A DNA stretch of 64,000 bases, taken from NCBI RefSeq assembly GCF_024223415.1, contig NZ_CP100500.1; one strand, written 5' to 3'. Each line of letters begins with the position of its first letter. The stretch's first letter is position 1. Both the position numbers and the translations under genes were made by a program. Positions 50,141-53,847 of the stretch are shown here, piece by piece. The DNA comes from Escherichia coli (lineage in GTDB: Bacteria; Pseudomonadota; Gammaproteobacteria; Enterobacterales; Enterobacteriaceae). A model generated the notes under the pieces. It searched no databases and was not told where the DNA came from. It saw only the letters and a program-made list of their open reading frames with translations.

Positions 50141-50356
50141 TTACTCTCCTCTCTCAGCCTTACGCCTGTCTTCTTTAATCTTGAAATAAAGGTTAGTCAG
50201 ATACGTCAGCATGCCAAATACCAGACTACCCAATACACCTATTGCCGCCCACTGTGAGGGCGTGACTTTATCGAGCAACTGTAAAAACCAGTAGCCAGCA
50301 CTGCCTGCAGAGGTGCCGTAGGCGATGCCCGTTGTTAACTTATCCATGGATTTCAT
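50141..50356 (-). CDS. pinholin (phage 21 S-like), dual-start motif
   Basis: Internal start [26 protein letters not shown]... closely matches S21; two Met codons 3 codons apart; track ORF to 50440. Confidence 0.85.
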
Positions 50357-50539
50357 AGCCTCACCTCCGCAGATAACGGATGGTGTACACGGTTTGGTTC
50401 GAAGAAGGAAAAAAGTTACATTAACGTAAGGCCCGAACATCTATTCAAAAAGAAAAACGCCAGCAATTATTCTGGCGTAGCTGAAAGCATCATACAATTA
50501 TCAAATACGAAAATTACAAAATCATTAAAACGCATCACG

Positions 50540-51280
50540 TTACATCATGTCTTTTTCTAAAAAAAATCTTGATGAATATTGATGGGGAGGAACACCAAAA
50601 TATCTTCTGAAAACACTTACAAAATATGACGTGTTTTCATAACCGCATATCTCAGCAACTTTTCCAACAGAATATAAATTGTAGCTTAATAACCTTTCCG
50701 CCATCACCATTCGCTCTTCAAGAATTAACTTACTAAATGATAAGCCTTCGTGCTTTAATTTTCTTTTTAACAGGCTTTCACTCAGATACAGTCTTGAAGA
50801 TATATCACAAAGTCTCCATGCTGCAGATATATCCGTGTGAATAATAGCCTTAACTTTACTTCCTAAACTATTAAGACATCCAAATAAAAAACTTTGCACT
50901 GTTTTCTCTGAAGATAAGATAGCAAGACATGCAAGTGATATTTGATTTCTAACAAAATCCACAGTTCTGCCATCAAAATTCAAGCATGCAATCAAATTCT
51001 TTAACAATGAAAAATCTTCACATTCCACCATCAAGTATGCCGGATAAAACCTTCTTACAGAAAAAGGTGAGAGTGTGTTGTTTTTAAAGAAATCATTAAC
51101 TGTTTTCTCTTCAACATCTACGATCATTACATGATCTATATTTGATGAAAAAAAATCTTTTAAATTGTAATCAATGAGAACAGCACTTCCTTTTTTAAAC
51201 AAAATATCTTCTTTACCAATTCGGACATCAAACGAGTTCAACACCAAAATGATAGAACATATGTATGGCATATTATCCAC
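50540..51280 (-). CDS. AraC-family transcriptional regulator (prophage cargo)
   Basis: 246 aa; AT-rich; C-terminal AraC HTH (GYENTSYFVSVFRRYFGVPPHQY). Confidence 0.8.
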   Translation of the reverse strand: MDNMPYICSIILVLNSFDVRIGKEDILFKKGSAVLIDYNLKDFFSSNIDHVMIVDVEEKTVNDFFKNNTLSPFSVRRFYPAYLMVECEDFSLLKNLIACLNFDGRTVDFVRNQISLACLAILSSEKTVQSFLFGCLNSLGSKVKAIIHTDISAAWRLCDISSRLYLSESLLKRKLKHEGLSFSKLILEERMVMAERLLSYNLYSVGKVAEICGYENTSYFVSVFRRYFGVPPHQYSSRFFLEKDMM

Positions 51281-51622
51281 CTGATATCATTGGGGTTACA
51301 CCAGGTAAGTATAGGTGGAAAATCAATATTCGCCAGTTCAACAATAAGGAAAATCTCATTGCATCACAAGTATAAAATTATGTATTTAACTCACAAAGAC
51401 AAATTATTAAACCAATCTGTTATATTATATATAGCTGCGTGGAATCATAATATTATATATTTTGACTGGCATGTTTACCAACTTTAAGTTGCATCTCAAT
51501 GGTTTCTTCAGCGTAAACAGAGTTTTTATACAAACTGACACTCTGGGTATCATAGTGTAGTTTTTACGATTGTAAATATCCTGCATGCAGGAACTCATCC
51601 TTTTGGATGATATCGCATACAA

Positions 51623-52582
51623 TTAATTTACCATCAGTCTTAGAGCCAGTTCGTCCGGATAGGGATCGAAGTAATTCTGTGTAAGCAAGTAGTCATTAGG
51701 ATACTCACCCAGATAATGCTTCAGCAGAGTCAACGGCGCAAGAAGAGGTAATGTGCCAGAACGATAGTTAAGTATAACCTCGCTCAACTCTTTACGCTGG
51801 CGTGTACTTAAGTAGTTACTAAAATACCCCTGTATATGCATCAGCACATTCGTGTGATTTTTACGTGATGCAGGTTTTCTGAGAATCGCCATCAGCTTAT
51901 CACGATACACCTCAAAGTATGATTCAAGGTCCGCCCACTCGTGTATTGCAGCCACAAATGGTCCCATATCTTTATAGCCTGCCTGACTATGCGCCAACAA
52001 CTGAAGCTTATAACGACTATGAAAAGCTAATAACTCTCTTCTTGATAATTTCTCCTTGTAAAGGTGATTGAGCTCATGCAAAGCAAAAACTCTTTCAACA
52101 AAATTCTCACGAAGCACTGGATCATGTAATCGCCCATCCTCTTCAACCGGTAGCCAGGAAAACTTTTCCATCAAAGTGCTCGTAAATAGTCCCACTCCAT
52201 CTTTACGACCTCGATTACCATTTTCATCATAGACACGCACGCGCTCCATGCCACAGCTGGGAGATTTAGCACAAACCACAAACCCCGATACATCCTTTAA
52301 TTTGTCCATATAAGAACGACTAAACTCTGTCATTCTCTCTGTCACATCCTCATTCTGGTCGTGGCTGAAACACATCCGTATATTTCCTTGCGTCGAGCGC
52401 ACAAGACGTAGAGCAGGACGCGGAACTGGCAGCCCTATAGCCATTTCCGGACATACTGGTCTGAATGTTACCCATTCCACTAATTTGTCCATTAAAAAGT
52501 CAGCTCTTTTGTGACCACCATCAAAACGAACAGCAGAACCGGCCAAACAACCGCTGATTCCAATCACAGGTTTTTTTATCAT
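51623..52582 (-). CDS. DUF523 (TudS-like) / DUF1722 fusion protein
   Basis: 319 aa; N-terminal Cys-containing DUF523-like region (GISGCLAG...CPEM...SPSCG), C-terminal YbgA-like region. Confidence 0.6.
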   Translation of the reverse strand: MIKKPVIGISGCLAGSAVRFDGGHKRADFLMDKLVEWVTFRPVCPEMAIGLPVPRPALRLVRSTQGNIRMCFSHDQNEDVTERMTEFSRSYMDKLKDVSGFVVCAKSPSCGMERVRVYDENGNRGRKDGVGLFTSTLMEKFSWLPVEEDGRLHDPVLRENFVERVFALHELNHLYKEKLSRRELLAFHSRYKLQLLAHSQAGYKDMGPFVAAIHEWADLESYFEVYRDKLMAILRKPASRKNHTNVLMHIQGYFSNYLSTRQRKELSEVILNYRSGTLPLLAPLTLLKHYLGEYPNDYLLTQNYFDPYPDELALRLMVN

Positions 52583-52774: not shown

Positions 52775-53299
52775 ATGAAGTTATGGCCTGTGTTGACTGG
52801 CATTGCACTCTCTTTCACTCTTATAGCATGTAAGGCCCCGACACCACCTAAAGGTGTGCAGCCGATTACAAATTTTGACGCCAACCGCTACCTCGGAAAA
52901 TGGTATGAAATAGCTCGCCTCGAGAACCGGTTCGAACGTGGTCTGGAACAGGTCAGCGCTACTTATGGAAAACGGAACGACGGAGGGATTCGTGTACTTA
53001 ACCGTGGATACGATCCAACGAAAAATAAATGGAGCGAGAGCGAAGGTAAAGCATACTTTACTGGAGATACTAAAACTGCAGCGTTGAAGGTTTCGTTTTT
53101 TGGCCCCTTCTATGGTGGCTATAATGTAATCAAACTGGATGATGAGTATAAGTATGCTCTTGTCAGTGGTCCGAACAGAGAATACCTATGGATTCTGGCA
53201 AGGACCCCAACTATTCCAGATAAAGTAAAAGCAGACTATGTGCGAACCGCTCAAAAGTTGGGATTCAATGTCAATGAATTATTATGGGTTAAACAATAA
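52775..53299 (+). CDS. bacterial lipocalin (Blc-like outer membrane lipoprotein)
   Basis: 174 aa; lipobox LIAC; strong resemblance to E. coli Blc (NFDANRYLGKWYEIARLENRFERGLE, GKAYFTG, KVSFFGPFYGGYNVI, YLWILARTP); opposite strand to late genes. Confidence 0.85.
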   Translation: MKLWPVLTGIALSFTLIACKAPTPPKGVQPITNFDANRYLGKWYEIARLENRFERGLEQVSATYGKRNDGGIRVLNRGYDPTKNKWSESEGKAYFTGDTKTAALKVSFFGPFYGGYNVIKLDDEYKYALVSGPNREYLWILARTPTIPDKVKADYVRTAQKLGFNVNELLWVKQ

Positions 53300-53327: not shown

Positions 53328-53354
53328 AAAAAAACCAGCCTTTGGGGAGGCTGG
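53328..53354 (-). terminator. putative intrinsic terminator downstream of Q (tR'-like candidate)
   Basis: 6-bp GC stem (ccagcc/ggctgg) with 8-nt loop, followed on the minus strand by a 7-nt U run. Confidence 0.4.
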
Positions 53355-53454
53355 CTAAATCAGAAAACAAGCTGTTATATGATAATAACTACGTTGCGAT
53401 TCCAACATTTAAAATGTTAGACTAATGACAATCAGACAGCAACTTTTCCTTTAA

Positions 53455-53847
53455 TTATTTCGGACAATCAGCATCCATCTCCAATCGGAGATCCAACACC
53501 ATCAGCATGCCCTCCACTACGCCCTCAGCTTTCTGGAGCATCCTGCCAACCCAACAATCAGATCGCCCATGCTTACGTGCAAGCGCCATAAAAGTCATGC
53601 CGCCGACATAATAGTCCACCAATAAATCATGCAAATCGCTGTTGTTTTTTTTCAGGCGAGCCATACATCCACAAATGATCATCGCGTCATCGTCACAACA
53701 TTGCGGGCGAGATTTTACTTTTGAAGGAATTAATCCCTTAAAACCGGCGGCAATGGACGACCAGGTCACATCTTCATGATTATTAGCCGCCCACGCTCCC
53801 CAACGCTCAAGAACCATCTGAATATCACGCATCAACTTTCTCCACAA
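53455..53847 (-). CDS. late-gene antiterminator Q
   Basis: 130 aa; Cys-rich zinc-binding region; position upstream of lysis genes. Confidence 0.75.

Follow-up and report, generated by a model that had tools for sequence, protein, structure and literature searches.

In a 64,000-nt stretch of Escherichia coli DNA (contig NZ_CP100500.1; the window in what follows), a Q antiterminator gene on the minus strand is followed by a hairpin and a run of U, which raises the question of whether this hairpin is the tR' terminator through which Q would control the late genes. A first-pass annotation of the window had taken it as such. The answer turns on where the hairpin comes from, where the promoter belonging to this Q lies, and which polymerases would reach the hairpin.

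The hairpin downstream of Q and its descent

The gene upstream of the hairpin (53455..53832, minus strand; 125 aa, start MRDIQ) is Q, as the first-pass annotation had proposed, with a full-length match to PF06530 (E=2e-51). Its product was 81% identical (97/120) to Q of the Stx phage 933W, the last ~24 residues of Q933 being missing from it, and matched the structurally solved Q21 only distantly (E=2e-8). The same 378-nt gene is annotated by RefSeq in E. coli HS, and the 933W record describes its own Q as similar to Q of H-19B and DLP12. The 3' end of Q forms a mosaic joint (53473-53492, minus strand; loci L054, L060, L085 and L087), at which other mosaic types part from the window type (type A). 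From the same Q body, five different cassettes follow in different phages, each with an opposite-strand gene first: blc, a gene for a 148-aa lipoprotein, one for a 423-aa ATPase, or the nmpC porin gene.

From the Q stop codon TAA (53457-53455, minus strand), 98 nt lead to a stem-loop at 53356-53333, composed of AGCCAGCC (53356-53349), the loop TCCCCAAA and GGCTGG (53340-53335) plus TT. The T run that follows (53334-53328) counts exactly seven before a C and overlaps the stem by two bases, which confirmed the earlier description of a minus-strand hairpin with seven U about 100 nt past Q. In a terminator scan of 6.5 kb this hairpin ranked first (9 pairs, 5 of them G-C, loop of 6 (6-8)), while the scan overall showed no enrichment, with 8 sites versus 5.9 ± 2.7 in shuffles. 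Folded alone, the hairpin reached -14.9 kcal/mol (z = -4.07), a value equalled by none of 200 shuffles. On the plus strand the same stem forms at -13.3 kcal/mol and is followed by CTAAATCA, without a U run; the terminator at 53356-53328 therefore appears to be one-directional, oriented with Q only. With its G+C-rich stem, its short loop and a tract of seven U on one strand and none on the other, the element has the features of an intrinsic (Rho-independent) terminator on the Q-coding strand, and termination there is predicted from these features. Across ~50 related IMG/VR loci the stem was invariant and the T run varied from 6 to 9. The Q-leader-blc junction was found in 1142 of 5426 complete E. 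coli genomes (21%), including HS, 042 and a B strain. Q stands directly upstream of the terminator on the same strand, as in a late control unit.

The hairpin and the sequence before it proved to be related to the pR' leader of 933W. By BLAST with the low-complexity filter off, 53377-53328 aligned with positions 940-993 of the 933W locus (L088) at 77.8% identity over 54 nt (E = 4e-4), and this span includes the annotated (second) terminator at 965-993. The Smith-Waterman score of the window leader against the 933W leader was 44, with a maximum of 32 in 2000 dinucleotide shuffles (P<0.0005), and soft scoring carried the similarity weakly upstream to ~53426, across all of StxS_S; the leaders of types B, C and D showed no such similarity. 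The stem GCCAGCCTCCCC recurs unchanged in the tR' of Sakai Sp5 and 933W, and the Sp5 tR', which reads GCCAGCCTCCCCcagtGGCTGGCtttt, is almost the same as the window hairpin. For the phage unit, dRNA-seq placed the start of the PR' transcript and Term-seq its 3' end, 258 nt further on (Sy et al. 2020, PMC7547250). The last 74 nt of this leader RNA constitute the Hfq-binding small RNA StxS_S, at whose 5' end a start site was also called in Sakai, and StxS goes with a short Q (PMC7547250), the 144-aa class to which the identity with Q933 assigns the window Q.

Judged by these alignments, the hairpin descends from the tR' terminator of 933W-type phages, and the preceding ~50 nt at least match the 3' portion of their pR' leader RNA (StxS); the homologous body as a whole extends over 53357..53426 on the minus strand. 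The segment between this body and the Q stop codon (53427..53454, minus strand) has no 933W counterpart, the homology starting beyond it in the soft alignment. Missing between Q and the hairpin are pR', the annotated qut, the first terminator and ~150 nt of leader, that is, the 5' two-thirds of the 933W unit, so that 98 nt are present where the phage transcript has 258. The earlier call of a tR' with a short leader thus holds for the terminator and the 3' part of the leader and is not supported for the rest of the unit.

The late promoter homologue and the cassette downstream of Q

The minus strand carries a homologue of the 933W-type pR' at 51576-51539, in the gap that separates the ybgA-like from the AraC-family gene, 1.9 kb beyond Q. 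It consists of a -35 element TTTACA (51576-51571), a 16-nt spacer with CGTAAAAA, a -10 element TATGAT (51554-51549) and AGAGTG. The pattern TTTACRWWCGTAAAWA-N6-TATNNT-N4-AGAGTG, built from 933W and types B, C and D only, matched the 64-kb window at this single place with 0 mismatches, and 0 of 100 shuffles contained a match, even when two mismatches were allowed. The site was also the top match of a generic promoter scan (10/12).

In the other mosaic types examined (PhiR40_1 for type B; mEp332, Kati and DLP12 for type D), the block runs TTTACA-16-TATGCT and, after ~55 nt, CCCGCCG..GCGGG with a T run. It follows the first gene downstream of Q, invariably an opposite-strand gene in these other types. 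When all fetched loci were scanned, the block was recovered downstream of Q in five types (A, A', B, C and D), and across these Q-linked types it is placed only beyond the opposite-strand cassette. Against the phage collection, the block was 79-80% identical over 89 nt to the Q-end sequence of 933W and ~200 other Stx phages; in the 933W annotation pR' overlaps the Q stop codon and is followed by a putative qut and then a terminator. Compared with 933W directly, the window block gave a weak BLAST match (E 0.06-0.2), so the link runs via types B, C and D. A comparison of the window with Lambda_2E9 showed 87% conservation of the block versus 61% on both flanks, a clear footprint.

Because the match is unique, the block is common to all types and its footprint is conserved, the cognate late promoter of this Q most probably lies at 51576-51549, outside the interval between Q and the hairpin. 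With the cognate promoter block elsewhere, the hairpin fails as a candidate for a Q-controlled late switch. The -35 element and spacer of pR' form a 14-bp palindrome without mismatch in 933W (TTTACGATCGTAAA) and the DLP12 type (TTTACGTACGTAAA) and with one deviating base in the window (TTTACAATCGTAAA); since Q21 binds a direct repeat, such a palindrome would imply another binding geometry or another factor. Just past the Q stop codon, the DLP12 type (L002, L085) carries AATTGTTTAC-TAAAAAT, which resembles the -35 region of the 933W pR' (AATAGTTTACGATCGTAAAAAT) with a 5-nt deletion and may be what is left of an original pR' next to Q; the alignment of the type D leader with the 933W pR' block was not significant in the one test made (P = 0.41).

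The cassette begins with a blc-type lipocalin gene convergent with Q (52775..53299, plus strand; PF08212, E=7e-44; annotated as lipocalin in phages and genomes) and continues on the minus strand with a YbgA-family gene (51623..52582; DUF1722 and a 2-thiouracil desulfurase domain). Both precede the late promoter homologue and thus fall outside the late operon, and the cargo genes are not behind the late promoter as the first-pass annotation had it. Beyond the promoter homologue come an AraC-family regulator gene (50540..51280; PF12833 and PF00165) and the first lysis gene, an S21-type holin (50141..50355; start MKSMDK; PF04971) with 76% nucleotide identity to the phage 21 S region. No other phage context with the same blc gene was found, and more distant blc homologues were present in Salmonella and Morganella records. 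The whole module of Q, leader, blc, ybgA, AraC and holin is carried by plaque-forming phages, namely lambda recombinants such as Lambda_2E9 and 1H12, and IdasGreatGrand, and is therefore functional in phages.

The terminator scan gave no terminator-like site on the minus strand from 51539 to 50478, where a terminator-like hairpin followed by TTTTTCTTTTT is found (50457..50478; -11.3 kcal/mol, z -3.17), ~100 nt before the holin start. Since it is the first terminator downstream of the pR' homologue in type A, this second hairpin is likely to be the working tR', the gate before the holin, lysis and late genes. When the region upstream of the holin was compared with phage 21 or types B and D, homology appeared only from ~20-30 nt before the holin start. 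The AraC-family gene lies between the probable late promoter and this terminator and may thus be expressed in lysogens. In lambda and Stx phages pR' is constitutive, and if this is also true here, the regulator would be expressed in lysogens.

What the hairpin may do

We consider it fairly probable that the hairpin downstream of Q is an orphaned tR' that ends the Q transcript, with the late promoter and its gate (50478-50457) lying downstream; it probably does not gate the late genes. Insertion of the cassette of blc and the ybgA-like gene would have left the pR' copy 1.9 kb downstream of Q, on whose side the hairpin stayed. Polymerases reaching the hairpin would come either from the early-right operon by way of Q or from a weak local promoter. 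Not being Q-loaded, these polymerases would stop in U7, unless early (N-type) antitermination had modified them; a polymerase loaded with Q at 51576-51549 would never meet the hairpin at 53356-53328. The hairpin would thus end the Q message and shield the convergent blc gene from transcription in the direction of Q, with an RNA 3' end made of the StxS-like body, the hairpin and the U tail as a by-product. Q-dependent late transcription would start at 51576-51549 and be gated by the terminator at 50478-50457. In type B, a comparable hairpin with a U-rich tail (-13.0 kcal/mol) stands after Q and before the reverse-oriented lipoprotein gene; a hairpin at the equivalent junction fits an insulating role at Q-cassette junctions.

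The StxS homology also permits a more tentative reading, to which we give a clearly lower probability, in which 53408-53328 is a self-standing gene for a diverged StxS-family sRNA freed from the late promoter. An RNA of ~80 nt would come from P1, which would then be a constitutive promoter created at the junction, or be cut from the Q mRNA at its 3' end; protected by the hairpin and U7 and bound by Hfq, it would act in trans with a new seed on targets other than rpoS, and termination would be the way of making the RNA, not a means of insulation. A U tail together with a U-rich stretch immediately 5' of the hairpin is the usual Hfq-binding 3' module, and the window has both, the tail being U7. 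The 81-nt RNA predicted for this interval folds into a 5' stem-loop and the terminator (-24.1 kcal/mol, z -3.76). The candidate sigma-70 promoter P1 (53414..53442, minus strand) consists of TTGCTG (53442-53437), 17 nt and TAACAT (53419-53414), and its predicted start (~53408-53406) aligns with the 5' end of StxS_S, so that, given the start-site call at this place in Sakai, the body could bear its own promoter. The homologue StxS_S is itself a proven Hfq-dependent sRNA (PMC7547250). The presence of the element in 21% of complete E. coli genomes speaks for this reading as well; if it is true, roughly one E. coli genome in five would encode such an sRNA, commensal and laboratory B strains among them.

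Against a self-standing sRNA, however, P1 stands at chance level: it was the best local match to the sigma-70 PWM, with a score of 9.2, while the median best score of shuffled leaders was 9.9, and a consensus promoter scan listed no promoter within the Q-adjacent leader. The body was 88.6% conserved between the window and Lambda_2E9, no better than other intergenic DNA, and the flanking genes 95%. At one leader position (53429, minus strand; G in the window), type A leaders that are nearly identical elsewhere show each of the four bases. The rpoS-pairing seed has been lost, the local duplex reaching -7.0 kcal/mol versus -23.2 kcal/mol for StxS, and regulation of rpoS by the leader RNA was discarded on this ground. 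Rfam, which has no StxS family, yielded no family match above noise in the window region; the StxS region of 933W (L088 881-997) gave only a sub-threshold match (28 bits, E = 1) to RprA, an sRNA that uses the same rpoS seed as StxS. The prophage sRNA HnrS was rejected as an identity for the element, being distributed differently (98% in EHEC/EPEC strains) from an element found in commensal and B strains.

Several further features of the leader were recorded. A perfect 15-bp palindrome, AACATTTTAAATGTT (53404-53418, minus strand), spans the candidate -10 element and the predicted start, and in its place Lambda_2E9 has a direct repeat of AATGTT. A 17-codon ORF, MLESQRSYYHITACFLI (53355-53408, minus strand), runs from the predicted 5' end of the RNA to just before the hairpin; as a coding, possibly leaderless frame it found no real support, four of seven variable sites among relatives falling on third codon positions (P ~0.17). 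The word ATATAACAG occurs twice on the minus strand (53372-53380 and 51417-51425; 0.36 expected, two reached in 3/100 shuffles), once within the StxS homology (GUAACAGC) and once after TATAAT upstream of the AraC-family gene, and also in a DLP12-type leader.

Improbable, in our estimate, is the model of the first-pass annotation, with a Q-responsive late promoter and qut between the Q stop codon and the hairpin, the hairpin as working tR', and Q-modified polymerase passing it and crossing blc antisense on the way to the lysis genes. A location directly behind Q agrees with lambda, phage 21 and 933W, and the terminator is a tR' by descent. TTGCTG-tc-...-TAACAT of P1 parallels TTGACA-tc-QBE-AACACT of phage 21 at about the same offset from the Q stop codon as the phage 21 pR', with a -10-like element (TGGAAT, 53404-53399; TAGAAT in Lambda_2E9) 9 nt downstream, so that P1 may be a working promoter; only in that case would TGGAAT count as a pause element. 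A second candidate, (G)TTGGA-ATCG...-TATCAT-ATAACAG, is faintly like the 933W pR'. However, the block TTTACR..CGTAAA..TAT..T....AGAGTG, conserved in 933W and in every pR' of the relatives of this Q, is absent from 53455-53328, its single match being the one at 51576-51539; the late promoter and qut postulated for the interval were not supported, and for qut this statement follows from the lack of the conserved promoter block rather than from any known motif. The literature examined contained no experimentally defined Q-binding element for the 933W group of Q proteins.

The leader was not significantly similar to the pR' blocks (P = 0.06 to 0.7), the best score coming from the terminator, and the second candidate, taken as (G)TTGGA-16-TATCAT-ATAACAG, was accordingly dropped as a diverged pR' (P=0.06, driven by the terminator). 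In IMG/VR loci whose Q is 91-100% identical over residues 1-120, at least four further Q-adjacent leaders occur that are unrelated to one another, and pairwise alignment of those of types A to D detected no similarity (all P > 0.18). A Q-binding site would be expected to be common to phages that share the DNA-binding region of Q; the leaders beside near-identical Q genes share nothing. Moreover, the type B hairpin begins 3 nt beyond the only -10 candidate, and in the window a late transcript would run antisense through the convergent blc gene. A phage 21-style leader (-35 element, a pair of Q-binding subsites, -10 element, pause element; TGTC or ATTnGTC repeats taken as the Q-binding element) was rejected on three grounds, namely a promoter score at chance (9.2 vs 9.9), the occurrence of all four bases at 53429, inside a putative subsite, and the lack of a motif common to leaders beside near-identical Q genes.

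Least probable of all is that the hairpin is the terminator or 3' stabiliser of the convergent blc mRNA and stands after Q incidentally: it does lie 34 nt past the blc stop codon, with a plus-strand stem of -13.3 kcal/mol, and the leader and blc were always together in the genomes sampled, but the plus strand has an A7 run before the stem and CTAAATCA in place of a U run after it, and the stem is homologous to the tR' of phages without blc.

The orphaned tR' thus remains the reading that we prefer, and it bears on how such loci are annotated, a hairpin with a U run right after a Q gene being insufficient to call pR'/tR'. The locus would represent a widespread prophage module in which cargo genes separated the late promoter from Q and the old tR' was left behind. 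Expression of the leftover StxS-like piece, if it occurs, would mean that StxS-type RNAs are not confined to Shiga-toxin phages.

Comparison with known late control units

The 6S RNA of lambda, which runs from pR' to tR', shares with the window unit the general layout of a short terminated RNA beside Q, whereas lambda Q belongs to an unrelated family and the two units have no sequence relation. Phage 21 is closer in design. In its annotation (OL657228), the Q stop codon is followed by 6 nt, TTGACA, tc, two 8-bp Q-binding subsites and the -10 element, transcription starts 7 nt past the -10 with a pause element at +2, and the terminator ends near +50. With this pR'-QBE-SDPE-tR' unit (Yin et al. 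2019; Shi et al. 2019, PMC6606751) the window has in common a Q of the same Pfam family, a short interval after Q that ends in a strong hairpin and U run, and a candidate -35/-10 pair, spaced by 17 nt, at about the same distance from the stop codon. However, the window Q and Q21 are distant relatives (E=2e-8), the promoter match in the window is at chance level, and the direct repeat ATTGAGCA/AATGAGCA of phage 21 has no counterpart in the window leader.

DLP12, known for QuuD/YbcQ and the essD lysis cassette (Rueggeberg et al. 2013, 2015, as cited in PMC7918800), resembles the window in its Q body (~86% DNA identity) and in its split layout, in which Q is followed by the reverse-oriented nmpC and then by a TTTACG..CGTAAAAA..TATGCT block. 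Its terminator lies ~180 nt before the holin. Unlike type A, the DLP12 promoter block keeps an immediate terminator, and the Q-adjacent leader of DLP12 is unrelated to that of the window and lacks the StxS-like piece.

The closest relatives are the tR'/StxS units of 933W, Sp5 and Sp15, which share with the window the Q family (81%), the position downstream of Q on the same strand, the stem GCCAGCCTCCCC...GGCTGG with its U run, and a homologous TAACAGC...U-rich stretch. In 933W the RNA starts 258 nt upstream, at a pR' overlapping the stop codon of Q, and runs past a first terminator, a part that the window lacks; beyond the 933W terminator lie tRNAs and stx, in the window the convergent blc gene. 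The seed with which the 933W StxS pairs to rpoS is not conserved in the window. The tR'/StxS of 933W-type phages is thus a known element that is here separated from its promoter by cargo genes, an unusual and widespread arrangement.
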